64,000 nt of DNA, from positions 295,601-359,600 of the forward strand of contig JACKGU010000001.1 of the NCBI GenBank assembly GCA_020631855.1, given 5' to 3'. The translations under genes were made by a program, and so were the position numbers. Origin of the DNA: Candidatus Nomurabacteria bacterium. Lineage in GTDB: Bacteria; Patescibacteriota; WWE3; UBA101185; UBA10185. Below, piece by piece: positions 24,697 through 64,000 of the stretch (positions are counted from its first letter, which is position 1; each line of letters begins with the position of its first letter). The notes under the pieces were generated by a model that saw nothing but the letters and a program-made list of their open reading frames with translations, made no database searches and was not told the DNA's origin.

Positions 24697-24907
24697 TATT
24701 TTATTTCCTAAACTGAATACGTACTTCGCAATTATAACAGAAAAGGGGCAGGTACAAAGCACCCAAAAATAGTGCTAAAACATTTTTACGGCCTAAATTT
24801 TTTTATTTGCTTTTATATTGCTAACCCGAACAAAATTCTTTTAGTACATGGCCTAACCTGCTTATACTAGCCACAAACAACAAAGAACTGTAAAATATCT
24901 GCAGAGT

Positions 24908-25873
24908 ATGAAAAAAATAACTGAAGCTACGATCGCTCAAGGCACTAGGGTTTTTGTGAGTACAGATATAGATGTACCTATAGATAATGGGCATATTAGA
25001 AATACTTTTAGACTCGACCGTGGCTTAGAAACTCTTAAGTACATAGTAGATAAAGGAGCAATCCCAGTAATTGGGGGCCATATAAAAAATCCTCAAGGAA
25101 AATACGATCCCCAGCTTAGTACAGCACCTCTTAAAAAGTATTATAATGAAAAATTAGGGGAGGGTTCTTACGAACTATTAGAAAATCTGCGTTTTGACAT
25201 TAGAGAAGATCAGAATGAGGATACCTACGCACAGGAACTGGCAAATAAAACAGAGGTCTTTGTAAACGAGAATTTTGCAACCTCACATCGAACAAATGCT
25301 TCTTTAGTTGCTATTACTAAATACTTACCTTCATTCGCGGGACTTAATTTGAGCAGAGAAATCGAAGCTTTGGATAAAATACTTATCGACTACAAAAAGC
25401 CTTTTACTGCAGTTATTGGCGGAGCGAAAGTTGAAAGCAAGGCACCTGTTATTGATTCGCTTTGCAACATAGCTGACAATATCCTGCTTGGTGGGAAAAT
25501 AGGCTTAAACTATTCTACGGATAATGCTAGGGTGAGCTCTCCGGCCGACTACGCAGACGGTAATCAAGATATCGGCCCGAAAACAATCCTAAACTATACA
25601 GGATACATACTGTCAGCCCAAACACTTTTATGGGCCGGGCCTATGGGAGCTTATGAAAAAGACGAATTCTGTATTGGTACAAATCTAATCGCAGATGCGA
25701 TAGTGGAAGCAACAAAAGGCGGCGCTTATAGCATAATAGGAGGCGGAGATACGATTACAGCTTATAGCAAGAACCACGCATTGGGAGAAGTAAGTTTTGT
25801 TTCAACAGGAGGAGGGGCCATGCTGACATATCTGGCGCATAAGAATATGCCCGGCATTGAGGCTTTAGGATAA
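24908..25873 (+). CDS. pgk: Phosphoglycerate kinase (compact, 321 aa)
   Basis: 'RVFVSTDIDVPIDNGHIRNTFRLDRG', 'LENLRFDIRE', 'VIGGAKVESKAPVIDSL', 'GGGDT...STGGGAML' PGK blocks. About 70 aa shorter than typical PGK. Confidence 0.9.
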   Translation: MKKITEATIAQGTRVFVSTDIDVPIDNGHIRNTFRLDRGLETLKYIVDKGAIPVIGGHIKNPQGKYDPQLSTAPLKKYYNEKLGEGSYELLENLRFDIREDQNEDTYAQELANKTEVFVNENFATSHRTNASLVAITKYLPSFAGLNLSREIEALDKILIDYKKPFTAVIGGAKVESKAPVIDSLCNIADNILLGGKIGLNYSTDNARVSSPADYADGNQDIGPKTILNYTGYILSAQTLLWAGPMGAYEKDEFCIGTNLIADAIVEATKGGAYSIIGGGDTITAYSKNHALGEVSFVSTGGGAMLTYLAHKNMPGIEALG

Positions 25874-25876
25874 ATT

Positions 25877-26179
25877 ATGGCAAAAAGTTTAAAAGTTCAG
25901 TTTCCGGAACGTTGCATAGGCTGCGAACTGTGCATCATGGAAATACAAAGACAGCTTAAAAAACACGGCCTCGAAGGTTCTCTGATTAGAGTTTTTAAAA
26001 GTGCCAAAGAAGGAAAAGAAATATGCGAGACTCTGGAATACTCAATAGATCTAGACCCGAGCATAAATTCATACGACATTGAACAAATTAGGAAAATTTG
26101 CCCAAAAAGTGTTTTTGTTGTGGCCGACATGACAGAAGAAGAGAACTACGAAGACGCTCTGCTGGAACAGAAAGATTAA
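25877..26179 (+). CDS. Small ferredoxin-like Cys-cluster protein
   Basis: 100 aa; 'CIGCELC' (C-x2-C-x2-C) plus a distal 'ICP' Cys-Pro could ligate one [4Fe-4S]. Starts 4 nt after the pgk stop. Confidence 0.5.
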   Translation: MAKSLKVQFPERCIGCELCIMEIQRQLKKHGLEGSLIRVFKSAKEGKEICETLEYSIDLDPSINSYDIEQIRKICPKSVFVVADMTEEENYEDALLEQKD

Positions 26180-26181
26180 AT

Positions 26182-27015
26182 ATGCATAAATCAGTCTTAT
26201 TTGTTAATTTAAAAAATAAAACATACGAGGTTAAAAAATTTGACGAACTCGCAAAATACATAGGAGGAGTTGCTGTTGGATTTAAACTTCTTCTTGATAA
26301 TATAGAGCACGATCCAATTATATTTTCTATCGGACCTTTGAACGGCGTGTTTCCTTTCGCATCAAAAACTTCTATCGTTCTGCATAACAATGGCGTAGTC
26401 GAAGACTTATATATCGGGGGTTCCCTAAGCTCCAGAATGGCCTTTTCCGGGGTTGACTCCATAGTATTTATAGAATCCGCAGAAGAGCCCACATACGTTG
26501 AAATAACGAATGAGGAAGTGTTCTTTAAACCAATAACAACTGATATAGATTCTTTAGGATTACCGGGGAAAAGATCAGTTTTAAAACCAATTAAAAATAA
26601 ATACTTTTTAGATGATTATTTTTTAACTCCGGAGTTATTTTTTGAAGAAAAGCTTGCAAAGAAAAATGTAGGAGGAATAGTGTTAACAGGAACAAAAACA
26701 CGTGAAATAAAAAATCCTGAAAAATATAAGGAACTTTTACACGAAATATTAGGTAAAAAGTCTTTAATGGAAATAGATGAGGGAGATAGCCCCTCTTGCA
26801 CATTTTGTCCAATGGGGTGCTCAAAGTCTCGTACCGGAGAAATTGGAGGAAACATATTGGTACACAGCATGGTGGGATGCAAGCTTAGCCAAAAAATATA
26901 CAGCGACGTGGGAACAATTTTTTCTTGCTTGAGTGTGTTGGGCTATTCCTACACACACGAAGATATTGAAGACCTGCCTCTTCTGGTAAAAGAGGTACTG
27001 GAAAAATTAAATTAA
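26182..27015 (+). CDS. Truncated aldehyde:ferredoxin oxidoreductase (AOR) N-domain-like Fe-S protein
   Basis: 278 aa (start taken at 26182, not the upstream out-of-context ATG at 26098). 'VLFVNLKNKTYEVKKFDEL...GGVAVGFKLLLD...PIIFSIGPLNGVFPFASKTSIV...DLYIGGSLSSRMAFSGVDSIVFIESAEEPTYVEI' parallels the AOR N-domain ('IRVNLSTG.I...LGGRGL...LL..E....DPL.P.N.L..A.GPLTGT.AP...R..V..KSPLTG......GG..G.ELK.AG.D.IVV.G.AEKPVY'). 'CTFCPMGC' matches the AOR C-x2-C-x3-C cluster motif. There is no pterin-binding C-terminal half. Stop overlaps the tpiA start (TAATG). Confidence 0.55.
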   Translation: MHKSVLFVNLKNKTYEVKKFDELAKYIGGVAVGFKLLLDNIEHDPIIFSIGPLNGVFPFASKTSIVLHNNGVVEDLYIGGSLSSRMAFSGVDSIVFIESAEEPTYVEITNEEVFFKPITTDIDSLGLPGKRSVLKPIKNKYFLDDYFLTPELFFEEKLAKKNVGGIVLTGTKTREIKNPEKYKELLHEILGKKSLMEIDEGDSPSCTFCPMGCSKSRTGEIGGNILVHSMVGCKLSQKIYSDVGTIFSCLSVLGYSYTHEDIEDLPLLVKEVLEKLN

Positions 27016-27671
27016 TGAAATATTTAGTAGCAAACTGGAAATCTAATATGACAGTCTCCGAGGTTATTGTCTGGCTAAAAGCTTGGGATAAACTAATAAA
27101 AAGCGCAGAGAGTAATGATGCGGTAAGAGTTTTAGTAGCCCCTTGTTTTATACATCTTCCATTATTTACCGGTCTGGAAAATATTTATTCTTGCGGGCAG
27201 GATGTCTCGGAGAACAGCGTAGGGCCTTATACCGGATACGTGAATGCTACACAGCTAAGGGAATTCGCTGATTACAGCATAGTCGGGCACAGCGAAAGAA
27301 ATGAAGACTCTGAAACAGTTGTCAAAAAGATTAATCAGTGTAGAAATAACGGAATTGAGGCCATTGCTTGTTTCACTCACACTGAAAATGCAACAGAGTA
27401 TTCAAAATTCACAAAGATCTTAGCTTGGGAGGACCCTGAAAATATATCAAAACAAGGAAAGTATGCAGAATTAAGGTATGGTGAAATAAATCACTCTATT
27501 GAAAAAATTTACTCTAATATTGAACCCGATACTGTGTTATTATACGGAGGCTCTGTTAACTCGAATAATATTAGCGAATTAACTAGAATTAAGAGTATAT
27601 CGGGGTTTTTAGTAGGAAACGCAAGTCTGGACGTGGCTCACTTTTATAAGCTATACTGCTCCATGATCTAG
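27015..27671 (+). CDS. tpiA: Triosephosphate isomerase (compact, 218 aa)
   Basis: 'VANWKSN', 'GHSERN', 'YGGSVN', 'GFLVGNASL' TIM motifs. Confidence 0.9.
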   Translation: MKYLVANWKSNMTVSEVIVWLKAWDKLIKSAESNDAVRVLVAPCFIHLPLFTGLENIYSCGQDVSENSVGPYTGYVNATQLREFADYSIVGHSERNEDSETVVKKINQCRNNGIEAIACFTHTENATEYSKFTKILAWEDPENISKQGKYAELRYGEINHSIEKIYSNIEPDTVLLYGGSVNSNNISELTRIKSISGFLVGNASLDVAHFYKLYCSMI

Positions 27672-49056: not shown

Positions 49057-50157
49057 ATGCCCGACAAAAACTTTAGCATTGCAGACACCCCCAATCTTTC
49101 AGCCGCAGACTACGCATTTGCGGAACTCAGAACACTTTCGTCACTGGTTAATGACACCAGAGATATTCCTGAAGACCTTAAAGATAGGCTGAACCAGATG
49201 CTCGATCGTCTTGATAGAATGGCTAAGCTTGGTCACTATGCCCAAGAGTTCGATACCCTTTCCAGATATATCGAGACTATTGCAGAAATACCTTGGGGAG
49301 AAAAAACAAAAGACAATCTTGATCTAACAGAAACAAAAAATATTTTGGATAAGAATCACTATGGAATGGAGTGGGTCAAAGAGAGAATACTTGAATACCT
49401 AGCAACTATAAAACTTTTAAAAGACAGACAAAAAGAAGGGGTTGGAAAATCTCCGGTTTTGTTATTAGTGGGCTTACAGGGCATTGGAAAAACCACACTT
49501 GCAATGTCAGTAGCTGAAGCCTTGGGCAGAAAATTTATTAGAATATCCATGGGAGGTATAGGGAGTACTCTAGAATTAAGAGGAAGAAGCAAAGCCTACC
49601 CTGAAGCTGAGCCCGGGCAAATAATTAAAGCGTTGATCAAAACTGGCGTTAAAAACCCGGTAATCTTACTTGATGAAATTGAAAAAGCAAGCGGAGAGTC
49701 GGGGCTTAGATCGGATATCATGGCGATACTTCTGGAAATACTTGATCCGAGCCAAAATAACAGCTTTAGAGACCATTATATTGACTATCCGATAGATTTA
49801 TCCGACGTATTGTTCATTTGCTCAGCAAACAACACCGGCACAATAACAACTGCACTTATGGATAGGTTGGAAATAATCAAAATGCCTTCCTACACGGATG
49901 CGGAAAAAGCTACTATAGCCAAAGACTACTTATTACCTAAAGTTATCGAACTAAGTGGACTAAAGCCGGAAGAATTAGAAATTGATCCGGCTCTTTGGCC
50001 TAGCATTGTGCGTCCTTTTGGTTTTGATAGTGGTATTAGAAGCCTAAGTAGAACTTTAGAGGCTATTTGCAGAAAAGTAGCCAAAGAAATAGTTGAAGGA
50101 AAAACTAAAAAAGTAAGGGTAGACGAATCAAATTTAAAATACTACCTTCCCAGCTAA
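49057..50157 (+). CDS. Lon-type AAA+ ATPase module lacking both the N-terminal LON domain and the C-terminal Ser-Lys protease domain
   Basis: 366 aa; aligns along its length to the E. coli Lon region of about residues 240-585: 'NHYGMEWVKERILEYLA' vs 'DHYGLERVKDRILEYLA'; Walker A 'GLQGIGKTTLAMSVAEALGRKFIRISMGG'; 'KNPVILLDEIEKA' Walker B; 'LDPSQNNSFRDHYIDYPIDLSDVLFICSANN'; 'ALMDRLEIIKMPSYTDAEK'. ORF stops right after the AAA+ lid. The next gene is a UDG, not a protease domain. Confidence 0.75.
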   Translation: MPDKNFSIADTPNLSAADYAFAELRTLSSLVNDTRDIPEDLKDRLNQMLDRLDRMAKLGHYAQEFDTLSRYIETIAEIPWGEKTKDNLDLTETKNILDKNHYGMEWVKERILEYLATIKLLKDRQKEGVGKSPVLLLVGLQGIGKTTLAMSVAEALGRKFIRISMGGIGSTLELRGRSKAYPEAEPGQIIKALIKTGVKNPVILLDEIEKASGESGLRSDIMAILLEILDPSQNNSFRDHYIDYPIDLSDVLFICSANNTGTITTALMDRLEIIKMPSYTDAEKATIAKDYLLPKVIELSGLKPEELEIDPALWPSIVRPFGFDSGIRSLSRTLEAICRKVAKEIVEGKTKKVRVDESNLKYYLPS

Positions 50158-52570: not shown

Positions 52571-54832
52571 ATGTCCGCAAGAAGAGGCCGTAAAAAAAAG
52601 TTTAAGCTGAAGTTTAATATACGTGGGGAAACTGTACGATCAATTGCAGCGTTATTACTAATATTGCTGGCTGGGGTCGTGCTAGTGTCCTTTGCTGCAG
52701 GAGTAGTCTCAGTTGACTCATCTATTCAAAGAGTTCTAAAAATTCTATTTGGATACGCGCACCTTGCTCTAGTGCCGATTTTCCTTATCACCGGACTACT
52801 CTTAATAGACAGTATTGATTGGAGATTTGTAGAGGGCCGGGTCTTAGCCGGCTTCAGTATACTACTTTTCGGAGCATCGGGATTACTTCACGCATTCTAT
52901 CTCGGAGACGGCTACGAGGCAGCAAAAGCAGGAAAAGGCGGGGGAATAGTAGGATACAAGATTTTTTCTGTACTAAGTTCTAATACCAGCTCTCTTGGGG
53001 CAATTCTTGTTCTGCTTACCCTGGTTATAATCTCTATCCTTCTTATCTGGGATAAGCCTATCGAAGAACTTGCAGCAAAACTTTCTGCATTAGGTCTACC
53101 CTTCTCTAAACTCAAGGCGGCGGGACTTGAAAGAAAATCAAAGAACGCTAGCACACACCAGAAAGAGGATATTCACATTACTTCAGGACTCAATCTAAAC
53201 TTCAGCGATAACACAGGTTACAACGAAAGCATAGAGAGTTCTCCGGAAGAAGATGCAACAAATTATCACGACGAAGATTCTGCAGCCGAGGAGATAGAAA
53301 TAATTCCTTCTCTAGCCGAGCCTAAATCTAAGAATTCTCACGAATTCAAAACAAATCCAAAAGTAACAGATACTTTGGCCCCGGCACCCCTTCCCTATTC
53401 GGATAGGGTGTGGGAAAATCCCCCCTTGGATATCTTAAACGATCCTCCGAATACTCCCGTAGATCGAGGAGACATCAATCAGAGATCGGCAATTATTGTT
53501 AACGCCTTAGCTTCTTTCGGCATAAATGTTGTGGTTAAAGACGTGCGTTTTGGTCCCTCTGTAACCCAGTATGCGCTAGAAACGGAGCCGGGAACCAAAA
53601 TTACTAAAATTTTAAGCCACCAATACGACTTAGCCCTAGCTTTGGCTTCGCCCACAGGTTCGGTTAGAATAGAAGCTCCAATCCCCGGAAAAAGTTTAAT
53701 CGGTGTGGAAGTACCAAATAACACGAGGGTCGTAGTTCATTTCAAAGAACTCTTACTGTCTGAGCAGATGAAAAACATGAAATCAAAAATCGGCATGGTT
53801 CTGGGGCTTGATGTTGGGGGGCAGCCGAAAGTTTATAATATCGCAAAAATGCCACACTTACTTATCGCAGGAGCTACAAACTCAGGTAAATCGGTACTCA
53901 TTCACAACATAATGTTCTCAATACTTTTTAGGGCAAGTCCGGAAGAAGTAAAGTTCATACTCATAGATCCCAAGCGCGTTGAACTAATGTACTACAACGA
54001 CATACCGCACTTGCTAACCCCTGTAATCACAGAGACAGAAAAAGCTCCTGCAGCTTTTAAATGGTTGGTGGGCGAAATGACCAGGAGATACAACCTTCTG
54101 GAATCGGCGCACGTAAGAAATATAGAATCTTACAACGAAAAGTCGGGCTTTCAAGCAATGCCATACATAGTAATGATAGTCGACGAGCTGGGGGAAATAA
54201 TGGTAACCGATCCTGCAGCAGTAGAAAAAAGTATTATAAGACTAGCTCAATTAGCAAGGGCTACCGGAATACACTTGGTGTTAGCGCTGCAAAGGCCTTC
54301 CGCAAATGTAGTTACAGGACTTATTAAAGCCAACGTGCCTTGTAGGATCGCGTTTAATGTTACCAGCCAGGTAGATTCCAGGGTAATTATCGACCAGCCG
54401 GGGGCGGAAAAATTGCTAGGAAAAGGAGACATGCTTTTTATTCCTCCAGACGACTCCAAACCCACCAGAATTCAAGGCTCTTATATTGCCGATAACGAAA
54501 TCAATGCCCTGGTATCATATCTTAAAAGCACAGGCGTAAAACCCGACTATAAAGAAGAGATTCTCTCCACACACGAGCCGGAAAAAAGCGTCTCTCTAGG
54601 AGGAGATAATGTCGATGAATATTATGACGAAGCTATGCGAACTGTAATTTCGGAAGGCAGGGCTTCCGCATCCTTATTGCAGAGACGACTGCAGATAGGT
54701 TATTCACGAGCAGCAAGAATTCTGGACGAGCTTGAGGCAAACGGTGTTATAGGTCCGGCGAGAGGTGCAAAACCCAGAGAAATTCTAAACAACTCCATTG
54801 CCGATCTTGAAGACGAAGAAGATGTGATATAA
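52571..54832 (+). CDS. ftsK: DNA translocase FtsK/SpoIIIE
   Basis: 753 aa; N-terminal TM helices, linker, motor domain 'HLLIAGATNSGKSV', 'MIVDELGEIM', and a gamma winged-helix at the C-terminus ('SASLLQRRLQIGYSRAARILDELEANGVI'). Confidence 0.9.
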   Translation: MSARRGRKKKFKLKFNIRGETVRSIAALLLILLAGVVLVSFAAGVVSVDSSIQRVLKILFGYAHLALVPIFLITGLLLIDSIDWRFVEGRVLAGFSILLFGASGLLHAFYLGDGYEAAKAGKGGGIVGYKIFSVLSSNTSSLGAILVLLTLVIISILLIWDKPIEELAAKLSALGLPFSKLKAAGLERKSKNASTHQKEDIHITSGLNLNFSDNTGYNESIESSPEEDATNYHDEDSAAEEIEIIPSLAEPKSKNSHEFKTNPKVTDTLAPAPLPYSDRVWENPPLDILNDPPNTPVDRGDINQRSAIIVNALASFGINVVVKDVRFGPSVTQYALETEPGTKITKILSHQYDLALALASPTGSVRIEAPIPGKSLIGVEVPNNTRVVVHFKELLLSEQMKNMKSKIGMVLGLDVGGQPKVYNIAKMPHLLIAGATNSGKSVLIHNIMFSILFRASPEEVKFILIDPKRVELMYYNDIPHLLTPVITETEKAPAAFKWLVGEMTRRYNLLESAHVRNIESYNEKSGFQAMPYIVMIVDELGEIMVTDPAAVEKSIIRLAQLARATGIHLVLALQRPSANVVTGLIKANVPCRIAFNVTSQVDSRVIIDQPGAEKLLGKGDMLFIPPDDSKPTRIQGSYIADNEINALVSYLKSTGVKPDYKEEILSTHEPEKSVSLGGDNVDEYYDEAMRTVISEGRASASLLQRRLQIGYSRAARILDELEANGVIGPARGAKPREILNNSIADLEDEEDVI

Positions 54833-54878
54833 TTTTTTCATATACTGCATGTATCAGTAATCTAAAAATAAACTGCCT

Positions 54879-55166
54879 ATGGAATTACAAACATTTTTAA
54901 TAATTACCTTAATATTCATCACTTTAAGTATAGTTGCAGTTTCTGTTTACATAATACTAATACTTAGAGAGTTTAAATCCACGGTACAAAAAGTTAATGG
55001 TGTCCTCTCTGTTACCGAGACACTATCGACTAAGCTCGCTAATACGAGCATAACCTTTGGAAATATTGTAAATGCCGTAATGGGTGCTGTGAAAACTGTC
55101 AAAACAATAAGATCCATAGCTGATTTTGGAGATGAGGAGAATAAAGATGCCAAAAGCAAAAGGTAA
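54879..55166 (+). CDS. Small membrane-anchored coiled-coil protein (DUF948/YtxG-like)
   Basis: 95 aa; N-terminal TM (FLIITLIFITLSIVAVSVYIILIL) then a helical segment. It directly precedes a YtxH-like gene, as ytxG-ytxH pair in Firmicutes. Confidence 0.35.
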   Translation: MELQTFLIITLIFITLSIVAVSVYIILILREFKSTVQKVNGVLSVTETLSTKLANTSITFGNIVNAVMGAVKTVKTIRSIADFGDEENKDAKSKR

Positions 55167-55446
55167 ATTCATAAAAGGTTTGTTTCTTGGTGCTGCTATT
55201 GGAACCGTGCTCGGGCTTCTTAACGCACCGGCAAAAGGCTCTGAAACAAAAAAAAGCCTTAAAAGCAAGTCAGAAAACTTTAAAAAGAAAATCAATGCTT
55301 TAGAACAAGAAGATATTGAGCAGCTCAAAAAAAGAGTAAATAAAGATGTGAAAAGCTCTATAAGCAAAAGTCTTAAAATACTAGCTTCAAAAATAGAAAA
55401 AGAAAACGAAAAATCTAACAAGGATAAAACAGATCGTATTGCATAG
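55147..55446 (+). CDS. YtxH-like small membrane/stress protein
   Basis: Start taken at 'MPKAKGKFIKGLFLGAAIGTVLGLLNAPAKGSETKKSL' (the Gly-rich amphipathic N-terminus typical of the YtxH family); coiled-coil C-terminus. The ORF track start at 55126 adds 7 aa. Confidence 0.4.
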   Translation: MPKAKGKFIKGLFLGAAIGTVLGLLNAPAKGSETKKSLKSKSENFKKKINALEQEDIEQLKKRVNKDVKSSISKSLKILASKIEKENEKSNKDKTDRIA

Positions 55447-55475
55447 TACTCCCGGAATAATGATACAATTACAGT

Positions 55476-56285
55476 ATGGACCTTAATGCTGCTCAAAACA
55501 CCAATAATCAACAGCTAAACTCGCACCCAGACGATGCTCAGAAAAATAAGCTCAATACGATTTTACCGGGCACCAATTCTCAAAGCTTGGGAGGGAATTC
55601 TCCGATTACAAGCATTGCAGGGGTGTCGGACGACGATCTTCAAAACAAAAGCATAAATCTAGACACGCAAGATACCCTAAGTACAGAAAATAAGACCAAC
55701 ACAAACAAAGAAATAGAAAAAGCAAAAGGCTACAAAGATGACATAAGTAAAATTGTATATGACTTTCTAGAAAAAAACGGAGAGAGCCTAGACAGTATGG
55801 AAGAGGTTCCATCAGACATAGGACCCTCAATAAATAACCATCCCGCAACACTTGGCCCCGGAAAAGGAAGAAGGGAGATTTTTACAAGCCCTGTAATAGG
55901 AACTATTAGTGAAAATGCGCCTATAAGCCATCGCGAAACCTTCCAAACTGAAATAGACCCGGCTTCTCAAACAGAGCAGATTTCTGTAGCTAAGGCAGAA
56001 ACATCCGCTCAAGAAGAAAAAAATTCTTCGGAAATTCAAAGTATACAGGAAGTATTACAAAACCCACAACCAGATTCCGAGAATTACGATAAAATATCAA
56101 CATTGATTCCAGAAACCGAACCTATACCGCAGCCGGATAGTGATTTGAACGTTGTTGACCTGAGAACAGGCCATGAAAATTTGCAACAAATTGCCGATCC
56201 AATAGATAAATTAACTGAAGAAGCAGATGAGAAAGAGGCAGACTTTATAACAAAAGTGGAGGATACACATGCTGTCGCTAACTGA
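55476..56285 (+). CDS. Acidic, low-complexity (predicted disordered) protein
   Basis: 269 aa; D/E/Q/S/T/N-rich, no TM. 3' end overlaps the start of the downstream ATPase gene by 17 nt, implying co-translation. Confidence 0.4.
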   Translation: MDLNAAQNTNNQQLNSHPDDAQKNKLNTILPGTNSQSLGGNSPITSIAGVSDDDLQNKSINLDTQDTLSTENKTNTNKEIEKAKGYKDDISKIVYDFLEKNGESLDSMEEVPSDIGPSINNHPATLGPGKGRREIFTSPVIGTISENAPISHRETFQTEIDPASQTEQISVAKAETSAQEEKNSSEIQSIQEVLQNPQPDSENYDKISTLIPETEPIPQPDSDLNVVDLRTGHENLQQIADPIDKLTEEADEKEADFITKVEDTHAVAN

Positions 56286-58677
56286 TATAGCCTACAACAT
56301 CTTCTGGATACTCTTTTACATTATTTTCTTGGCGAGCACTATATTAGGAATATTTTATATGCTTGCCAAAACCAAAAGACAAAGATTTCTAAAAAACAAA
56401 CAATATAATTTGACCTTCTTCCATGTTAAAGTACCACAACAAAACGAATTCGAAATAGATGCGGCAGAACAACTTTTTGCAGGCGTGGCAGGTTTGAGAA
56501 GATCAACTCTGGAAGGACTTTTGAAAGGCCAATACCAAGTCTCATTTGAGATCTTGGCCAAACACGGGCAAATAGGCTTCTATATAGTAATGCCTGACGA
56601 ATTGGTGGAATTTATGGAAAAGCAGATTAACGGGGCCTATCCTACTGCCGAAATAGACATTATTGATCCAAACGAAGTTTGGGACAGAGGGCACTTCACA
56701 GCTATCGCAGAGCTAAAACTTAAAGGACCGGCATTCTACCCTATTAGAACGATAAAAGAGAAAGAAGGTGACCCGCTAAGCACTCTCACCTCGGTACTAA
56801 CAAAGCTGAAAAAAGACGAGGTTATAGCTATTCAGCTTGTAACCTCACCTGCCAGTAACTGGTGGAGGGCTGCAGGAAATGCTTTTATCGGACATGTCAA
56901 ACACGGCGGAAATCCCGAAAAGAAAAGTGCCCCAGACAACTCCATGCTGGAAGGTGTTGAGAAAAAAATAGGAAAAAGCGGGCTTGATGTCGTTGTGAGA
57001 GTTGTCTCAATAGCTGAAACCAAACACATAGCGGAAAGCCACATAATGAACGTTGTAACCGCCTTCGAGCAGTATACTGATGTTAAATACAATAAATTCA
57101 AAAAAAGCAGAGTTTTATTTAAAACAAAATTTGTAAATGATTTCATTTACAGAAACATAACGCCTCTAAATATATACATCCCGATTTTATATAACACACT
57201 TTATAGCAGAACCTCGGTACTGAATATTACTGAGATGGCAAACATCTTCCACATGCCTAACAAAAACATACAAACTCCAAACATTCTGTGGCTAATTGCA
57301 AGAAAGGCGTCAGCCCCGTCAAACATACCTCACGAAGGCCTGTATTTAGGAATCAATCAGTTTAGAGGCTCACAGAGAGGTATCTATATGAAAGAGAAAG
57401 ATCGTACACGACATATGTATATTATAGGGCAAACGGGCACAGGTAAATCCGAGTTTATGAAGACACTGGTACTACAAGATATTGCCGCGGGAAAAGGTTT
57501 GGCTCTAATTGATCCTCACGGAAGCGATATAGACGATATCTTAGAAAAAATCCCGGAAAGCAGAATAGACGACGTAATACTTTTTGATGTTTCAGATATA
57601 GAACGCCCGATGGGATTAAACATGCTTGAAGCTGAAACCGAGGAAGAGAAACACATGATTATTAACTCATTTATTGCCTTGTTATATAAGCTATACGACC
57701 CAAACAGACAAGGTATCATGGGCCCTCAACTTGAAAGGGCTATAAGAAACGTTATGCTAACCGCAATGGTAGATAAAGAATCAACCATGGTAGATGTTCT
57801 AAGGCTATTGATCGACAACAAATATGTAGAAACTTTTATACCAAGAATTCAAGATCCACTAGTTAAACGGTACTGGACTGATGAAATGGCCAACACAAGC
57901 GACTACCATAAAGGCGAGAAAATGGGCTATTTTGTATCAAAATTTGATAGGTTCGTAACAGAGAGGACCATGAGAAATATACTAGGGCAACCAAAAAGTG
58001 CATTTAATTTTAACAAGATTATGGCAGAAAAAAAGATACTGCTCGTAGACCTGTCTAAAGGTAAGATTGGAGAAGAGAATTCAAACTTTATCGGCCTGCT
58101 TCTGGTTCCACGAATACTTGCTGCAGCTCTATCCAGAGCTTCCCTTTTAGGTAAAGAGGATTTCCCTGATTTTTATCTTTATGTAGATGAGTTTCAAAAC
58201 TTTGCCACACCTGACTTTGCTACTATACTGTCGGAAGCCAGAAAATATAAACTAAATTTGGTTGTCGCGCACCAATTTGTGGCACAGTTAACCGACGACA
58301 TTAAAGAAGCCGTGTTTGGTAACGTAGGAACAACTTGTGTTTACAGGGTTGGTCCGGACGATGCCGAATATCTTGAAAAACAGTTTGACCCTTATTTCAC
58401 AAAGTCAGATTTATTAAACTTGCCAATTGGAAACGCTTACATGAGGCTGCTTGTCGACGGCCACCCAACAACGCCTTTTTCCCTTGCTGTAGATTGGGAC
58501 ATGGTTAATAAAACTAAAAAAGATCCTTCTGTGGCAAAGAGAATAAGAGAAAACTCAAGCATGAAATACGGAACACCAGTAAATGAGGTTGAGGAATACA
58601 TAAATAAAAGGGCAGGGCTGAATAAACAAGGCGAGGATAGCCAACTACTTGAAAAAAGAAGTTTAATACCTTTTTAA
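56269..58677 (+). CDS. VirD4/TraD/TraG-like type-IV coupling-protein-family ATPase with N-terminal membrane anchor
   Basis: 802 aa; N-terminal TM (IFWILFYIIFLASTILGIFYMLA), about 300-aa domain of unknown function, then Walker A 'IIGQTGTGKSEFMKTL', coupling-protein-like Walker B 'YLYVDEFQNFATP' (xxDEFxN), C-terminal 'LNLVVAHQFVAQL'. The FtsK/HerA superfamily is certain; T4CP subfamily is probable. Confidence 0.6.
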   Translation: MLSLTDIAYNIFWILFYIIFLASTILGIFYMLAKTKRQRFLKNKQYNLTFFHVKVPQQNEFEIDAAEQLFAGVAGLRRSTLEGLLKGQYQVSFEILAKHGQIGFYIVMPDELVEFMEKQINGAYPTAEIDIIDPNEVWDRGHFTAIAELKLKGPAFYPIRTIKEKEGDPLSTLTSVLTKLKKDEVIAIQLVTSPASNWWRAAGNAFIGHVKHGGNPEKKSAPDNSMLEGVEKKIGKSGLDVVVRVVSIAETKHIAESHIMNVVTAFEQYTDVKYNKFKKSRVLFKTKFVNDFIYRNITPLNIYIPILYNTLYSRTSVLNITEMANIFHMPNKNIQTPNILWLIARKASAPSNIPHEGLYLGINQFRGSQRGIYMKEKDRTRHMYIIGQTGTGKSEFMKTLVLQDIAAGKGLALIDPHGSDIDDILEKIPESRIDDVILFDVSDIERPMGLNMLEAETEEEKHMIINSFIALLYKLYDPNRQGIMGPQLERAIRNVMLTAMVDKESTMVDVLRLLIDNKYVETFIPRIQDPLVKRYWTDEMANTSDYHKGEKMGYFVSKFDRFVTERTMRNILGQPKSAFNFNKIMAEKKILLVDLSKGKIGEENSNFIGLLLVPRILAAALSRASLLGKEDFPDFYLYVDEFQNFATPDFATILSEARKYKLNLVVAHQFVAQLTDDIKEAVFGNVGTTCVYRVGPDDAEYLEKQFDPYFTKSDLLNLPIGNAYMRLLVDGHPTTPFSLAVDWDMVNKTKKDPSVAKRIRENSSMKYGTPVNEVEEYINKRAGLNKQGEDSQLLEKRSLIPF

Positions 58678-58687
58678 GAAAGACGCT

Positions 58688-60565
58688 ATGGTAGAAACAG
58701 CAACCGCCGCAAATGACGCTTTAACAGCATTAAAGGGAAGGAGCGAAACAAAAGTTTCGCCTCTTGAAGAATTTTGGACAAATATAAATGCGCTTACTGC
58801 GGCTTCGCGACAACTGCTGACTAAAATAGAAACCAGCCCCCAGAGCGGACTGAATCAACGCAGAGCCGCACAGCTAGCTAGACAGGCTTTGGCTAGCTAT
58901 GAGATGACGACTAGCCTGACAGAAAATCCCACTAATAGAGAGGAAATTAATGCCCTTTCCAGGTTAGGCGCTGCGACAAACATCGACCCAACAAATCTAT
59001 ACAGAGAGACAATATTACTACAGCCGGAAGTACACTCGTATGAATATTCGGTCAAGCTGTTATTCTCCCACATAGTGTCTATGACCACTGAGGACAGAAG
59101 CAACACCACAAAAAACTTAGCATTGGTTTTAGCCGGGAATTGCTTAGACGGGAGTAAGGTTGATGTAAGAAAAATTCAAAACGAGCTCAGAGAATTAAAT
59201 TTTCCGAACCACCACTTATCAGAAGCAGCAGAGGCCATCGCTGCTATAATCCGGCATACGCCTTACAATCTAACAGATCATCAAGAAAAATTGGGGGTAA
59301 CAGGATACCCGGAAGTCTTGGCTAAAGCTTATAAGAGACTCTACGATCTAGCAACCAAACTTGATCCGGATACACCGCCTACAAAAGCGGAAGAAAGGTC
59401 ACAGCACCAACCCTATGCCAATTGGGAAGCCAGGGCCAAAGAAAGAGAATCGATACACTACAACAGTAATCCTAGAGAACACAAAATATTTTCACGTAAA
59501 GGAGAGATTTTGACTGCCAAGGGTTCGGAGAATAAAACAGCCCAAGTCTTAATTCCAACTGCCATACTTACCAGAACCGTACCTTTGGCGGACTTTGCAG
59601 GCAATGACAGGGCTTTCAATAAAGGATACGTAAAACTACAGCAGGTATTTACCTGCACAACATTTCAAGAAGTCGAAGCTACCCTTGAAATGCTAAACGC
59701 AGCATCTATTGCAGAAGAAGAAAAAACAGCACAGGTACCCATATATGTTCCTAAAACCGTGGTTCAAAATGGAAAAACAACAATTGAATATGAGATAACC
59801 TACATGGAGATGCCGATTGGAACCTATAATAGCTGGCGTAAAGCTTTAATGGAGGCTCGCAAATCCTACCTTAGAGCAGGATTTTCTATTCAAAACCAAG
59901 ATATAACTGCTGGAGTACGCTTAGCAACAGAGCAAGAGAATGCCTATGCAGAACAGACAATGTTGAATAGATATCAAGAGCTTTTGTCTGGACCTAGCCA
60001 TATCAAAGATTCTCTAGACGCATGGATGAGTCAAAGTCATTCAAGGGACAGATTTTACATTAAAGAATTGATGCAAAATACAATGGAACTAGTAAATGAG
60101 TTGACTGAAGAGCTTAATTTGACCCGAAACCCTCGCAATATAACATTAGAGGCTATGAAAACTCTTTATGAAGAAGGGCATGAGCAGCACCCACTGACGA
60201 TGGAAAAAGAAATAACACAGATGTTCGACAACAGAATGGCCGAGCGCTCTAACTATTATGTTGCAATGAAGGTAGCTTTGACAACTCTTGAAAATGTAAA
60301 TGCTTTACCGCCGCCAAGAGATCGCAAAGAAGCAAAAGAACAGATTAGAATGATTATAAATGTTCAAACACAAATAAAACAAATAATGCTTTTCTTGGCA
60401 CTTCAAGAAAAGGGCGTCTCCGAGAGCCGTGCCTCACAAGTCGCGCTGGAAAACTTCCCGGAACACTCAGTGATTAAAGCTCAAGTACCTTATAGGGCTA
60501 GAAATAGTCAAGCCAGAAGGGTTGCAGGAAAGAGACAAGCTGTTAGCAACCAAGGCTCTAGTTGA
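58688..60565 (+). CDS. Hypothetical 625-aa soluble protein immediately downstream of the coupling-protein-like ATPase
   Basis: No TM, no recognisable catalytic motif; mostly helical. Starts 11 nt after the ATPase gene stop. Confidence 0.4.
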   Translation: MVETATAANDALTALKGRSETKVSPLEEFWTNINALTAASRQLLTKIETSPQSGLNQRRAAQLARQALASYEMTTSLTENPTNREEINALSRLGAATNIDPTNLYRETILLQPEVHSYEYSVKLLFSHIVSMTTEDRSNTTKNLALVLAGNCLDGSKVDVRKIQNELRELNFPNHHLSEAAEAIAAIIRHTPYNLTDHQEKLGVTGYPEVLAKAYKRLYDLATKLDPDTPPTKAEERSQHQPYANWEARAKERESIHYNSNPREHKIFSRKGEILTAKGSENKTAQVLIPTAILTRTVPLADFAGNDRAFNKGYVKLQQVFTCTTFQEVEATLEMLNAASIAEEEKTAQVPIYVPKTVVQNGKTTIEYEITYMEMPIGTYNSWRKALMEARKSYLRAGFSIQNQDITAGVRLATEQENAYAEQTMLNRYQELLSGPSHIKDSLDAWMSQSHSRDRFYIKELMQNTMELVNELTEELNLTRNPRNITLEAMKTLYEEGHEQHPLTMEKEITQMFDNRMAERSNYYVAMKVALTTLENVNALPPPRDRKEAKEQIRMIINVQTQIKQIMLFLALQEKGVSESRASQVALENFPEHSVIKAQVPYRARNSQARRVAGKRQAVSNQGSS

Positions 60566-60628
60566 AAAATATCGAGGGCCTGTTTTTCAAATATACTACA
60601 AAAGCCCATTTATAGTATAATCAAGTAA

Positions 60629-61834
60629 ATGTTTAAACTGCCATTTAAAATAAATTTCAATAAAAAATCAAAAACGGATACTTTTTTAACAATAGACATA
60701 GGATCAAGCACAGTCAAAACACTAGCTTTTTATAATGACAGCGAAAGCAGATTAAAAGTAATCGGGCTGGGGAAGGAATTTTTACCCGAGGGTGCGGTAC
60801 GAGCCGGATATATAACTGATTTAAAAAGTGTCATAGAAGCAGTGGACGAAACAATTTATCAGGCCCTTGCTAATACGGAACACAGAATTACAGATGCGAT
60901 AATAGGAATATCCGAAAACCTGTGCTATTCGCAAGTTACAACCGGCCGGCTAAACAGAACTACGCCGGGAGAACTGGTTACAGAGAAAGAGCTGGATAAT
61001 TTGAAATACAAAATAATTGATGCTGCGTACAACACGGCCCTAGATGATTTTGTCTATAAAACCGGCGATCTTTCAACAGAGCTTATTCATATAAGCTCTA
61101 TTCCGGCCCATACAAAACTTGATTCAAAGATTGTTGACGACCCAACCGACTTGCCGGGAGCAAAAGTTGAGCTGGCAATTTACAATGCCTATTCCCCCGA
61201 ATATCATACAAAGCAACTGCAAAAAATTGCTGACACGCTAAAACTTTCAGTTTTAGCTATGGTTCCCAACATGTTCTCGTTAGGGGAAGCCCTAAAAAAA
61301 CTCACAAAGGACAATGAGTTGGATTGTATCATTTTAGATATCGGGGGAGAAACAACAGATGTAGGAATTATGTTTGGAGGGGGCCTTATAACTACAAAAA
61401 GCTTACCTATAGGAGGAAGGCACTATACAGAACAGCTATCTTTACAGAGCGGCCTTACTTGGGCAGAATCTGAAAAAAAGAAGAATCAGTACTATTTCGG
61501 ACAAACAGCAGATACAGAAACATCTTTCATCGAAACAGTAATGACTGAAACAACCGACCTGTGGCTCAGCGGGCTGGAAACCCTGTTTAATGAATTTAAT
61601 GGGGTCAGGACCTTTGCATCTGATATATTTGTAGTTGGGGGAGGAAGCTTGCTACCCGATATAATGGCAGCTCTAGAGTCCAGGCCATGGACAAAATCCA
61701 TACCTTTTAGAGAGCCGCCAAGAATAAAACGGGTCAGCATTTCTGAGCTGGATTTTGCTAGAGATACAACCGGCAAACTAAATGAATTGGATTATATTCA
61801 AGCCCTGTCTTTAGGTTTGATGGGAGAATATTAA
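60629..61834 (+). CDS. Actin-fold ATPase of the PilM/FtsA family
   Basis: 401 aa; 'FLTIDIGSSTVKTLAF...LKVIGLGKEFLPEGAVRAGYITD' (phosphate-1/adenosine motifs) and 'ILDIGGETTDVGIMFGG' (phosphate-2). No ftsZ follows, which favours PilM-like over FtsA. Confidence 0.55.
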   Translation: MFKLPFKINFNKKSKTDTFLTIDIGSSTVKTLAFYNDSESRLKVIGLGKEFLPEGAVRAGYITDLKSVIEAVDETIYQALANTEHRITDAIIGISENLCYSQVTTGRLNRTTPGELVTEKELDNLKYKIIDAAYNTALDDFVYKTGDLSTELIHISSIPAHTKLDSKIVDDPTDLPGAKVELAIYNAYSPEYHTKQLQKIADTLKLSVLAMVPNMFSLGEALKKLTKDNELDCIILDIGGETTDVGIMFGGGLITTKSLPIGGRHYTEQLSLQSGLTWAESEKKKNQYYFGQTADTETSFIETVMTETTDLWLSGLETLFNEFNGVRTFASDIFVVGGGSLLPDIMAALESRPWTKSIPFREPPRIKRVSISELDFARDTTGKLNELDYIQALSLGLMGEY

Positions 61835-63364
61835 ATGACAAAATTTGAAATTGAAATACACGACGATTTAATAAATGTGCTTGGAAAACTACAAACAATA
61901 AATGACGACGGAATTGAGCTCATTATTCCTGAAGGTTCAGTAATTTTTGAAAACATTTTAAATCTTAGAATTATTCAAAAAGAACTTGAAAAATCTGGAA
62001 AAACAATACATTTCGAGACGTCGGATGAAAACGGAAAAAGACTTATAGAAAATCTTGAAAATGACTCCTCCGGCCTTTCTTCCGAGCTGGATTTTACAGA
62101 AGCTGAAGCAACTGAAATAAACCCAAAAACACACAGAAAAAAACAACGCACGGTCTCGCTTGCATTACCTAAATTTAAATTTTCAGGGGGTACAAAATTT
62201 AAAATAGCAGGTTTAATAGGAGTTGTGACCGCCGTAATCATAGGAAGTTTATACCTATTGATTTGGAAACAGCATAAGGCAATCGTAAATTTAGTCGTGG
62301 AGGCACAGCCTCTGGTTAAGAGCGTACAGATTAGAGTGGCAACAAACAGCGAAACAAATACCGAACAAAAAACTCTAAAAGGCTCACAAGTAAGTACAAG
62401 CACCGTCCAGACCGCGAGCGTGCCAACAACAGGGGAAAAACTGGTAGGTAACCAAGCCTCAGGAACTGTAAAAATTTACAACAAAACAACAAATGGTAAA
62501 ACCTTTAAAAAAGGTACGGTTCTTGTCTATAAAAAAGACGATAAAACCCTAAAATATACACTTGACGAAGAAGTAGAAGTACCTGAAAGAACGGAAGATA
62601 TCTTGCAGGATCCGCCATTAATAACTTGGGGTGAAAAAGAAGTTGATGTTACAGCAGAGGAAATAGGAAATTCTTATAATATTGACTCGGGCGAAAGTTT
62701 GGATTTTGATGATTTCGACAAGGACGATTACACTGCAAAGAGCACGACAAAAATCAACGGGGGCAGCAGCGAGACACTTAAAATTGTGGCCCAAGAAGAT
62801 ATAGACAACCTACTTATCGAGCTGGAAAAAAGTGACGATAAAACTAAAACCGAGCTACAGCAAAAAACTTCGACAGGACGAAAATTAATTCCCGGGTCAA
62901 TCAGCCTTCAGACAACAAAAGATTCCTTTAGCGCCGAACTAGGAGACGAGGCGGAAAATCTAGAGCTTGTCAGAGAAGCGACGGCCACAGGGCTAACTTA
63001 TTCCGAAAATGAACTGGAAGTTCTACTAGACAGACTCGTAGATGATTTCGTCCCGGAAGGCTTTGAGCTATCGACAAAAGACAAGGAGATAAAAGCAGAG
63101 GTCTTAGGTGCAACGGAAACTACGACACTTTCAAGCGAACAGGCCGATTTACAGGTAACCATTAAGGCTTACGTGATACCAAAAATTGATGAGATCGAGC
63201 TAAGGGAGAATTTGGCAGGGGCCCCGTTGTCGAAAGCAGAAGAAATATTAAATGCTATTTCTAATGTTGCAACCTATTCTTTAGATGTAAAACCAAATAT
63301 TCCGCTGCTTAATTCCCTTCCCCATAATCCGGAAAATATAGAGATAACAGTAACTAAAAGGTAA
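61835..63364 (+). CDS. Bitopic membrane protein (about 115-aa cytoplasmic N-terminus, 1 TM, about 370-aa extracytoplasmic domain), hypothetical
   Basis: 509 aa; TM 'IAGLIGVVTAVIIGSLYLLIW'; T/S/E/K-rich external domain. Starts 1 nt after the PilM/FtsA-like gene. Confidence 0.4.
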   Translation: MTKFEIEIHDDLINVLGKLQTINDDGIELIIPEGSVIFENILNLRIIQKELEKSGKTIHFETSDENGKRLIENLENDSSGLSSELDFTEAEATEINPKTHRKKQRTVSLALPKFKFSGGTKFKIAGLIGVVTAVIIGSLYLLIWKQHKAIVNLVVEAQPLVKSVQIRVATNSETNTEQKTLKGSQVSTSTVQTASVPTTGEKLVGNQASGTVKIYNKTTNGKTFKKGTVLVYKKDDKTLKYTLDEEVEVPERTEDILQDPPLITWGEKEVDVTAEEIGNSYNIDSGESLDFDDFDKDDYTAKSTTKINGGSSETLKIVAQEDIDNLLIELEKSDDKTKTELQQKTSTGRKLIPGSISLQTTKDSFSAELGDEAENLELVREATATGLTYSENELEVLLDRLVDDFVPEGFELSTKDKEIKAEVLGATETTTLSSEQADLQVTIKAYVIPKIDEIELRENLAGAPLSKAEEILNAISNVATYSLDVKPNIPLLNSLPHNPENIEITVTKR

Positions 63365-63366
63365 AA

Positions 63367-63804
63367 ATGAAAAATAAAAATACTCCCTCAAAAAACACTA
63401 CCTATCTTGGGGTAGATTATGGAAAAAAGAGAACCGGCCTTGCGTTAGGAAGAAACGGACTCACTGCAATACTCACAGCAATAGACTCAAAAGACACGAT
63501 TTATGCATTAAATGAGTTGGCAAAGATTATTGCCCTAAATAAAGTGGATGTCATAGTTTTTGGACTTCCGCTCGATGCCGAGGGTAAAGACACTGCAATG
63601 TCTATAGAAGTTCGAACATTTGCAAACAGCCTAAAAAGAAAAATTAAAAAGAATATTCAATATGTAAACGAATTCCAGTCATCGGTGGAAGCAACAGAAG
63701 ATGCAATAAGCTCGGGTTTATCAAAAAAAGGTCGAAAATCTGTTGACAGTATATCTGCCGGAATTATTTTGAAAAGGTATTTCGAAAATCTTGATACAGA
63801 GTAA
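63367..63804 (+). CDS. ruvX: Holliday-junction resolvase-like RNase H-fold protein RuvX/YqgF
   Basis: 145 aa; 'YLGVDYGKKRTGLALG' N-terminal Asp motif, 'VIVFGLPLDAEGK'. Confidence 0.85.
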   Translation: MKNKNTPSKNTTYLGVDYGKKRTGLALGRNGLTAILTAIDSKDTIYALNELAKIIALNKVDVIVFGLPLDAEGKDTAMSIEVRTFANSLKRKIKKNIQYVNEFQSSVEATEDAISSGLSKKGRKSVDSISAGIILKRYFENLDTE

Positions 63805-63832
63805 AGGCAGGGATCCCGTAGCGAATATGAGC

Positions 63833-64000
63833 TACCTCTTTTCCTCCATTACAACATCCTTTGAGCCGCACTTCATACATTCGAAATTTTCACCCGGCTT
63901 CAAACAAGCAGGGCAAATGTATAAACCGTCCTTATATATTAACTCGGACCTTTCGCATCTATTACATAAAAAAATAACATCGTCCTGTGAAACATCTCCA
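63833..64000 (-). CDS. Partial ORF (3' end) encoding a C-terminal zinc-ribbon (FmdB-like) tail
   Basis: RC reads ...DDVIFLCNRCERSELIYKDGLYICPACLKPGENFECMKCGSKDVVMEEKR*. Three CxxC pairs. The 5' end lies beyond the window, so identity is unknown. Confidence 0.3.

Follow-up and report, generated by a model that had tools for sequence, protein, structure and literature searches.

A fast-diverging, optional gene directly downstream of a coupling-protein-like ATPase in WWE3 Patescibacteria

The stretch of DNA analysed here (the window) comprises 64,000 nucleotides of the core chromosome of a WWE3-like Patescibacterium (Candidatus Nomurabacteria bacterium, GenBank assembly GCA_020631855.1, contig JACKGU010000001.1, positions 295,601 to 359,600). 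At positions 58688-60565, an open reading frame (ORF) of 625 codons, referred to below as the target, follows the gene of an ATPase whose predicted fold resembles that of the coupling proteins of type IV secretion systems (T4SSs). An apparent absolute orphan among 1.84 billion proteins, the target could be tied by synteny-anchored profiles to a small, unannotated family, of which it is very probably a strongly diverged member. The members of this family occupy one position, the slot, between the ATPase gene and the gene of an FtsA/PilM-like protein. By analogy with known systems, the target may be classed as a lineage-specific accessory protein of the coupling-type ATPase; it is an optional, dispensable add-on and not a demonstrated secretion substrate. 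An original prediction, made from the letters of the window only, had proposed that the target is a substrate, adaptor or effector of whatever the ATPase translocates. That interpretation found partial support: its link to the ATPase stands, its framing as a secretion substrate does not.

The target gene and the slot family

The target and its parts are listed below.

58688..60565, + strand: target gene; ATG start; 625 amino acids; soluble, predicted to be mostly alpha-helical; very probable divergent member of the slot family; coding statistics like those of its neighbours
58678..58687, + strand: spacer of 10 nt between the ATPase stop and the target start
59621..59953, + strand: conserved family core, residues 312-422; short helices, a beta-hairpin at ~347-376 and an amphipathic helix at 377-396 with YNSWRKALMEARKSYLRAGFSI, as predicted from the core-profile alignment and an AlphaFold2 (AF2) model
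60488..60562, + strand: basic C-terminal tail, residues 601-625, PYRARNSQARRVAGKRQAVSNQGSS; net charge +6; predicted to be unstructured

The target is a real, native coding sequence. Translation confirmed the 625-amino-acid ORF on the + strand. At the stop-codon frequency of the window, a run of 625 codons without a stop has a probability of ~1e-15, and the two remaining forward frames contain 52 and 48 stops across the same interval; the ORF is therefore no chance frame. The total GC content (0.423, with GC1 > GC2 ≈ GC3) and the synonymous-codon likelihood score both lie inside the range of neighbouring housekeeping genes. No Shine-Dalgarno motif precedes the target, but the motif is rare genome-wide and its absence is thus uninformative. 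The only other public sighting of the source organism is a 2.6-kb contig (L095, from Logan SRR17907852) that corresponds to window positions 58776-61383 at 99.9% DNA identity. It differs from the window by zero mismatches and by three 1-nt indels, one of which splits the target ORF. All three lie at homopolymer edges and two of them fall within the conserved downstream gene; the indels were therefore read as assembly errors, and the possibility that the target is a pseudogene was rejected.

The encoded polypeptide is a cytoplasmic protein of a WWE3-class Patescibacterium. Its highest 19-residue Kyte-Doolittle mean is 1.23, which leaves no transmembrane (TM) segment. A Walker A motif and an HUH (H-hydrophobic-H) motif are absent, and a single NHH occurs at residues 174-176; on all of these points the original prediction was correct. 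The isoelectric point (pI) is 6.7. No signal peptide was found in the target or in the other six members of the slot family. A single-sequence AF2 model of the target was mostly alpha-helical, with a mean predicted local distance difference test score (pLDDT) of 41.7, and was not used for fold assignment. The core is the highest-scoring part of this poor model and contains its only beta-hairpin-plus-helix element, while the C-terminal tail has no secondary structure in the model (pLDDT ~30). The tails of the six relatives are acidic or neutral, and the net +6 tail of the target is not conserved.

In every standard search, the target behaved as the orphan that the original prediction had taken it to be. 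There were no matches in Pfam, NCBIfam, PHROGs or PADLOC, no relative among the PDB sequences, and no match in collections of phages, plasmids and viral contigs. A word-indexed search of 5.8 billion proteins returned only the identical fragment from L095, and an exhaustive phmmer/HMMER search of 1.84 billion cluster representatives returned only the same fragment. The remote homology check suggested with the original prediction, a Foldseek search with the low-confidence AF2 model, gave no match at E <= 0.001, and no housekeeping homologue emerged. There are no meaningful repeats flanking the target. Several identities were rejected on these grounds. The lack of phage, plasmid or viral matches and of meaningful flanking repeats, together with the native composition, spoke against a mobile-element origin, and the library searches against a defence effector or phage or plasmid cargo. 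A conjugative relaxase was rejected since there was neither a relaxase match in Pfam or NCBIfam nor an H-hydrophobic-H motif, and a NurA-type nuclease was rejected since there was no Pfam match and the slot family described below has no conserved acidic cluster.

A synteny survey covered 17 distinct loci, the window included, taken from the contexts of ATPase homologues, with neighbouring genes located by tblastn; L002 and L003 are two assemblies of one sequence and were counted once. The content of the slot was as follows.

Slot empty, 8 of 17 loci (L001, L002/L003, L005, L007, L010, L098, L101, L102): 3-120 nt between the flanking genes
Slot with alaS, 2 of 17 loci: L013; L015, which has in addition an unrelated 462-amino-acid ORF and a 100-amino-acid ORF
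Slot with a large unannotated soluble ORF, 7 of 17 loci: L004, 822 amino acids; L009, 725; L096, 720; L097, 739; L099, 1181; L100, 823; window, 625

In the genomes surveyed, the family is found only directly after the ATPase gene and before the FtsA/PilM-like gene. For the six members other than the target, a gap of 2-39 nt separates the start from the stop of the co-oriented ATPase gene. The target starts after a gap of 10 nt with no intervening terminator-like site, so that the positional link to the ATPase, and the co-oriented placement claimed for the target, stand; the distance of 11 nt given originally is the start minus the stop coordinate. Between the slot gene and the FtsA/PilM-like gene there are 29-101 nt in six of the seven loci with a family member; in L009, the seventh, the PilM-like start is ambiguous. 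The expected co-occurrence with the ATPase holds in one direction only: the family is confined to this neighbourhood, while the ATPase, which has more than 4000 homologues, is often without the family. Among the loci with an empty slot is L098, whose ATPase is the closest to that of the window (68% identity). In more distant Patescibacteria (ATPase identity 35-56%), the gene downstream is unrelated, coding for GyrB, DnaX, UDP-glucose dehydrogenase, a peptidoglycan-binding protein or a second ATPase paralogue resembling type IV coupling proteins (T4CPs), and often no co-directional gene follows the ATPase. Given these unrelated genes, a general rule by which Patescibacteria pair the ATPase with a large variable partner was rejected. 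Empty slots and unrelated downstream genes in relatives mean that the ATPase does not need the target. In one distant Patescibacteria locus (L065:6001-11000), tandem T4CP-like ATPase paralogues overlap by 4 nt.

The loci with alaS were inspected individually. The 621-amino-acid ORF of L015 is similar in size to the target but was rejected as a family member, being alanyl-tRNA synthetase (AlaRS), and the 462-amino-acid ORF directly after the ATPase in the same locus is not a member either. The L015 arrangement (L015:7877-11484) consists of this unrelated 462-amino-acid ORF, a 100-amino-acid ORF and the 621-amino-acid AlaRS. In L013 (L013:1121-2962), the AlaRS ORF has only 462 amino acids and is followed by a 99-amino-acid ORF; the gene is perhaps split or truncated.

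Homology within the family was established stepwise by sequence comparison. The proteins of L004, L009, L096 and L097 are mutually homologous (E 1e-25 to 1e-110), a profile of these four matches the L099 protein at E = 2.6e-9, and the L100 protein matches that of L099 at E = 2.6e-9. At first, comparisons of the target with the family did not reach significance (BLASTP, E = 0.45-0.54; two-sequence hhalign, E = 0.14; full-length 5-member hidden Markov model (HMM), E = 0.15), and in the early alignments the best local match always fell on the most conserved motif of the family. Significance was reached only with core-restricted, better-sampled profiles. BLASTP of the target against the L099 protein, which belongs to the target's own ATPase clade, gave E = 4.4e-4 on the motif YNSW.K.L.....SY.R.GF.I (YNSWTKELDGCIRSYERSGFDI in L099 and YNSWRKALMEARKSYLRAGFSI in the target). 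An hhalign comparison with the 5-member alignment gave P = 3.4e-4 over 87 columns (target residues 310-401). With a 5-member core HMM, the target scored 15.8 bits and was the top real ORF, and 2 of 20,000 composition-matched shuffles scored higher. Upon the addition of L100, the 6-member core HMM gave the target 18.4 bits (E = 0.0012 in 21,430 sequences), ranking it at the top of 1,424 real non-member ORFs; none of 20,000 shuffles reached this score, the best of them attaining 14.6 bits. The results indicate that the target is very probably homologous to the slot family, through a similarity that is statistically supported but weak.

The core of the family follows the pattern …VKAqE..w.LE…G…vPV.r…W.pls…Y..W+..l…..FE+.GldY…, and it is the HMM of this core that the target matches weakly. 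All seven members are invariant at A331, W383, G398 and E417 (target numbering), and a further 11 positions are conservatively hydrophobic or aromatic. Such conservation looks like that of a small folded binding or structural module rather than that of an active site. The six members other than the target have 720-1181 amino acids, pI values of 4.3-5.6 and no TM segments. The family, too, is without a name or a neighbour in the databases: a profile of L004 and L009 recovered only the L009 protein itself in the large protein search, the family profile had no credible match among PDB sequences, and no member matched Pfam even at E <= 1. None of the libraries searched contains the slot family, and no relative with a known structure could be detected.

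Comparison of the slot proteins with the ATPases beside them shows that the family diverges several times faster than the neighbouring genes. Slot proteins are 34% identical where the ATPases share 82% identity; at 72-76% between the ATPases, this falls to 25-30%, over part of the length only, and at 63-66% nothing but the motif is left. This decay with ATPase distance explains why exhaustive sequence search found nothing, and the original label of an orphan holds for standard searches but not for the synteny-guided profile. Divergence beyond recognition fits the target better than a de novo origin. On the ATPase tree, the family is found in two sister WWE3 subclades, interleaved with empty-slot genomes, and not in the outgroups, which is most simply explained by a single origin and at least four losses.

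The ATPase and the surrounding operon

The genes around the target form a conserved co-directional block, given here without the target.

52571..54832, + strand: FtsK DNA translocase, the first gene of the block (Pfam/NCBIfam matches, synteny)
54879..55166, + strand: small protein with a single TM segment (hydropathy peak); matches an un-annotated 88-amino-acid ORF of L001, not the adjacent YtxH ORF
55476..56285, + strand: acidic (pI 4.3), low-complexity ORF of 269 amino acids; overlaps the ATPase start by 17 nt
56269..58677, + strand: VirB4/VirD4/HerA-type ATPase; N-terminal TM helix, DUF8128 domain, P-loop GQTGTGKS at 387-394, helical insert at ~458-586, TraG-D_C domain
60629..61834, + strand: FtsA/PilM-like actin-fold protein (Pfam/NCBIfam); directly follows the ATPase wherever the slot is empty
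61835..63364, + strand: conserved bitopic 509-amino-acid protein, TM ~124-143; no credible domain match
63367..63804, + strand: RuvX (YqgF) Holliday-junction resolvase-like protein, the last conserved co-directional gene of the block

The best 120 homologues of the ATPase are 58-68% identical to it, and those that are named come from candidate division WWE3 or Patescibacteria. ATPase homologues carry the domains PF26449 (DUF8128), PF01935 (DUF87/HerA) and PF12696 (TraG-D_C); a literature search on DUF8128 found nothing. An AF2 model of the ATPase built with 48 homologues (pLDDT 85.8, predicted template modelling score 0.76) has a long N-terminal helix (4-44) containing a TM-like hydrophobic peak at ~11-29, a ~300-residue alpha/beta DUF8128 domain, a P-loop core and a helical insert at ~458-586. 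In a Foldseek search of the PDB, VirB4/TrwK was the best full-length match (E = 7e-15), and HerA, HerA-NurA and Cagβ were among the other matches. The C-terminal half superposes on TrwB with a template modelling score of ~0.6 (TrwB-normalised) and a root-mean-square deviation of ~5 Å over ~410 columns. A profile of the ATPase searched against PDB sequences matched DotL and TrwB around the P-loop, and weak matches to the HerA and mad8 models were obtained with PADLOC. The protein shows the architecture of T4CPs, with a membrane anchor, a Walker A P-loop NTPase domain and an inserted all-alpha domain. The term coupling-protein-like, used in the original prediction, is thus fair as a statement about the modelled fold. 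The ATPase also mixes the two types of T4SS ATPase, resembling VirB4/TrwK at full length and TrwB in its C-terminal half, helical insert and TM helix.

The setting of the ATPase is that of a core Patescibacteria gene within a housekeeping operon. The 64-kb window contains neither VirB4 nor a relaxase nor any other T4SS gene, and no T4SS channel or relaxase gene was found in the flanks of the ATPase loci fetched from syntenic relatives. In WWE3-like genomes, the order is PNPase, Lon-like AAA+, (NUDIX), UDG, RNase J, FtsK and one or two small ORFs, followed by the acidic ORF, the ATPase, the slot, the FtsA/PilM-like gene, the ~510-amino-acid bitopic protein and RuvX. The conserved block at 52571-63804 sets the ATPase in a chromosome-handling or division context, not in a secretion island. 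According to a survey of Patescibacteria (PMC12102498), 5,713 VirD4-like T4CP homologues occur in 2,918 genomes, and 148 of the 5,713 lie near virB4; in S. epibionticum, t4cp is non-essential for epibiotic growth while other T4SS genes are essential. The same survey considers the VirD4-like ATPases possibly exapted for other roles, and the T4SSs of Patescibacteria presumably co-opted to non-conjugative ones. The window ATPase fits the class of "orphan" T4CP homologues described there.

The very acidic, disordered 269-amino-acid ORF upstream may be another fast-evolving ATPase partner. An ORF of 113-229 amino acids overlaps the ATPase start at the same position in most syntenic relatives (none is called in L100), and only the C-terminal ~45 residues of the window ORF match these relatives. 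Unlike the target, this putative partner is present in most relatives. A YtxH-family (PF12732) ORF lies in the same block of small ORFs in relatives, next to the match of the ORF at 54879..55166; it is at most a possible orthologue of that ORF.

The + strand has no terminator-like site from the ATPase stop to the start of the PilM-like gene; a promoter and terminator scan of 54700-64000 gave counts at chance level. The 63-nt gap downstream of the target (60566-60628) contains TATAGTATAAT, with a -10-like TATAAT, ~10 nt before the ATG of the FtsA/PilM-like gene. The sequence TATAGTATAAT may be a -10 element from which the downstream genes are transcribed separately, perhaps with almost no leader.

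Elsewhere, the window carries ORFs of the sizes of EF-Tu, EF-G and rpoBC (assigned by size and order, not by domain scans), together with SecA, several aminoacyl-tRNA synthetases, PGK, TIM, MurJ, hrcA-grpE-dnaK-dnaJ, a short NusA, a short IF-2, PNPase, Lon-like AAA+, UDG, RNase J and FtsK. Three features of this region are recorded as observations in their own right. The ORF at 49057-50157 encodes a 366-amino-acid protein with Lon AAA+ and lid modules and no protease domain, which is kept at this position in all syntenic relatives. At 22579-24762 on the - strand, a 727-amino-acid class II aminoacyl-tRNA synthetase (tRNA-synt_2 plus anticodon OB) bears a C-terminal HD phosphohydrolase domain; we know of no description of such a fusion. 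An odd glycolytic cluster at 24908-27671 consists of PGK (321 amino acids), a 100-amino-acid ORF without a match, a 305-amino-acid ORF with the N-terminal domain only of aldehyde:ferredoxin oxidoreductase, and TIM (218 amino acids).

Possible roles of the slot protein

The reading that we favour, tentatively and at somewhat less than even chances, is that the slot protein may act as a non-enzymatic accessory subunit, an adaptor or a regulator, of the neighbouring ATPase. The conserved core would dock on the cytoplasmic part of the ATPase, and the variable, mostly acidic helical arms would adjust the ATPase's choice of what to engage or the timing of its activity; both the binding and the regulation are suggested by analogy. 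Several observations weigh against this proposal. The connection of the target to the family consists of ~90 residues at 18 bits, and the full-length 6-member profile matches the target non-significantly (E = 0.13). The target is smaller than the other members (625 amino acids) and near-neutral (pI 6.7 vs 4.3-5.6). In most relatives, the ATPase does without the gene, and any role must therefore be dispensable. In L013 and L015, the slot contains alaS, a housekeeping gene with no relation to the family, so that little about function can be concluded from adjacency by itself; moreover, the target is equally adjacent to the FtsA/PilM-like gene. Finally, no structural similarity to CagZ or another known adaptor was found with the low-confidence target model (pLDDT 42).

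The target could instead be what the ATPase transports, a secreted or translocated substrate or effector recruited for a secretion channel encoded elsewhere, with its divergence reflecting an arms race with a host bacterium. A position beside a T4CP-like ATPase kept in seven genomes and the extreme divergence of the slot proteins agree with this, as does the unstructured C-terminal tail of net charge +6; substrates of VirB/D4 systems carry Arg-rich C-terminal signals. Patescibacteria are also described as encoding T4SSs that were presumably co-opted for non-conjugative roles (PMC12102498). However, the basic tail is missing in all six relatives, and the slot proteins are large acidic helical proteins in which the conserved part is internal, not terminal. 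The gene is absent in over half of the close relatives, and no T4SS channel gene occurs in the 64-kb window or in any ATPase locus fetched. The same survey reports few T4CP homologues near virB4 (148/5,713) and a t4cp of S. epibionticum that is dispensable for epibiotic growth. We regard a substrate or effector as unlikely. With a core housekeeping ATPase, no T4SS gene in 64 kb, no signal peptide and a basic tail that the relatives lack, the secretion framing of the original prediction could not be upheld; of the three roles it offered, an adaptor is a reasonable guess, and a substrate or an effector is unsupported. A different partner is conceivable in the FtsA/PilM-like and bitopic ~510-amino-acid proteins, for which the slot protein would be an optional cytoplasmic scaffold in a division-like or pilus-like membrane complex. 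All seven genomes have the slot gene directly before the FtsA/PilM-like gene, the block is co-directional, and the FtsA/PilM-like protein also evolves fast (24-45% identity where the ATPases share 63-76%); long helical acidic proteins are commonly scaffolds. The slot gene nevertheless lies closer to the ATPase gene, at 2-39 nt, with 29-101 nt separating it from the FtsA/PilM-like gene in six of seven loci; the -10-like TATAAT in the 63-nt gap hints that the latter gene is transcribed separately, and slot occupancy tracks no obvious FtsA/PilM-like subtype. To this partnership, too, we give a low probability.

Two further explanations would deprive the slot protein of a role or of a family. If the slot were simply permissive, its occupant could be an unimportant passenger drifting under relaxed constraint toward loss. 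Patchy occupancy with at least four inferred losses, the unrelated genes in the slot elsewhere (alaS in L013 and L015 and the 462-amino-acid ORF in L015), very fast divergence with lengths ranging from 625 to 1181 amino acids, and the lack of catalytic conservation are all expected of a passenger. Against it, seven lineages that are deeply diverged (ATPase identity 63-82%) have kept intact ORFs of 625-1181 codons, all seven retain a specific core motif, and the codon usage of the target is native. Patescibacteria genomes are small and gene-dense, so that a useless gene of 1.9-3.5 kb would be expected to decay; where the slot is empty, the flanking genes join cleanly, and the 3-120 nt between them leave no space for remnants of a gene. 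The passenger explanation therefore seems improbable to us. Still less credence is given to the target being a true singleton orphan, arisen de novo or from an unsampled source, with a coincidental match to the core motif. The exhaustive HMMER search of 1.84 billion representatives that found only the gene itself, the E values of 0.13 for the full-length family profile and 0.14 for the first two-sequence hhalign, and the unusual size and charge of the target would all suit a singleton. They are opposed by the fact that a single a-priori candidate at the orthologous position ranked first of 1,424 ORFs and above 20,000 shuffles, that three methods converged on the same ~90 residues, and that the score rose from 15.8 to 18.4 bits on adding the independent member L100. 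The target is, furthermore, closest to L099, from its own ATPase clade, as vertical descent predicts; the decay of slot protein identity with that of the ATPase predicts motif-only similarity at 65%; and there are neither phage, plasmid or viral matches nor flanking repeats.

Comparison with known systems and significance

The closest parallel to an accessory subunit of this kind is CagZ, a protein restricted to H. pylori that binds Cagβ, a coupling ATPase, at its all-alpha domain, keeps it in the monomeric state and controls the formation of hexamers (PMC9886983). In the CagZ/Cagβ pair (PDB 8dol), as at the target locus, a soluble, helical, lineage-restricted protein without homologues elsewhere is associated with a VirD4-type ATPase: CagZ is a partner of Cagβ, the slot family adjoins such an ATPase, and Cagβ was among the Foldseek matches of the window ATPase. 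The differences are considerable. There is no detectable sequence or structural similarity between CagZ and the target. CagZ, of ~200 amino acids, is much smaller than the slot proteins. It is part of a genuine T4SS island, whose known substrate is CagA, whereas the target locus has no T4SS genes nearby. The slot protein is also optional, and it is by analogy with CagZ that it may be thought to bind its ATPase.

Compared with the T4CPs VirD4, TrwB, TraD and DotL, the window ATPase has a similar N-terminal anchor, P-loop NTPase core, helical insert and TraG-D_C domain, but it carries an extra DUF8128 domain of ~300 residues, is closest to VirB4/TrwK at full length, and is a core gene of a housekeeping operon around which relaxase and channel genes are missing. 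T4CPs are usually assisted by soluble adaptors specific to the system. Known partners include TraM and DotN-IcmSW-LvgA, and the slot protein resembles neither TraM nor IcmS/W, nor does it match any Pfam family. Pairs of HerA with NurA or with other effectors resemble the locus in that a HerA/FtsK-superfamily ATPase is followed by a co-directional partner gene. However, the slot protein has no NurA or other nuclease, Sir2 or other effector domain and no conserved acidic or histidine catalytic set, and the window ATPase is membrane-anchored and universally conserved, unlike patchy defence genes. The orphan T4CPs of Patescibacteria (PMC12102498) are likewise VirD4-like, widespread and almost always away from virB4, but that study, as far as it was consulted, describes no WWE3 operon context or downstream accessory gene.

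Taken alone, the target is one of very many lineage-restricted hypothetical proteins of Patescibacteria, and the stakes are modest. The locus invites a tempting reading as a secretion or conjugation module, which the present analysis corrects. A bolder extension, to which we attach only a slight probability, is that the slot family could be a fast-evolving specificity module of the orphan ATPase, either host-directed cargo or a cargo-selecting adaptor for the transfer of DNA or protein between epibiont and host. If that were true, arms-race divergence would explain why slot proteins of close relatives are unrecognisable to each other, and the family would be a first handle on the role of the ubiquitous T4CP homologues and on WWE3 host range.

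Gene turnover concentrates at the slot, while the rest of the operon, with the ATPase, FtsK, the FtsA/PilM-like protein and RuvX, is rigid. An optional and tightly linked partner is a natural entry point to the role of the orphan coupling-protein homologues (PMC12102498). The more interesting object may be the operon itself, in which a VirB4/VirD4-like ATPase stands among FtsK, an FtsA/PilM-like protein and RuvX.

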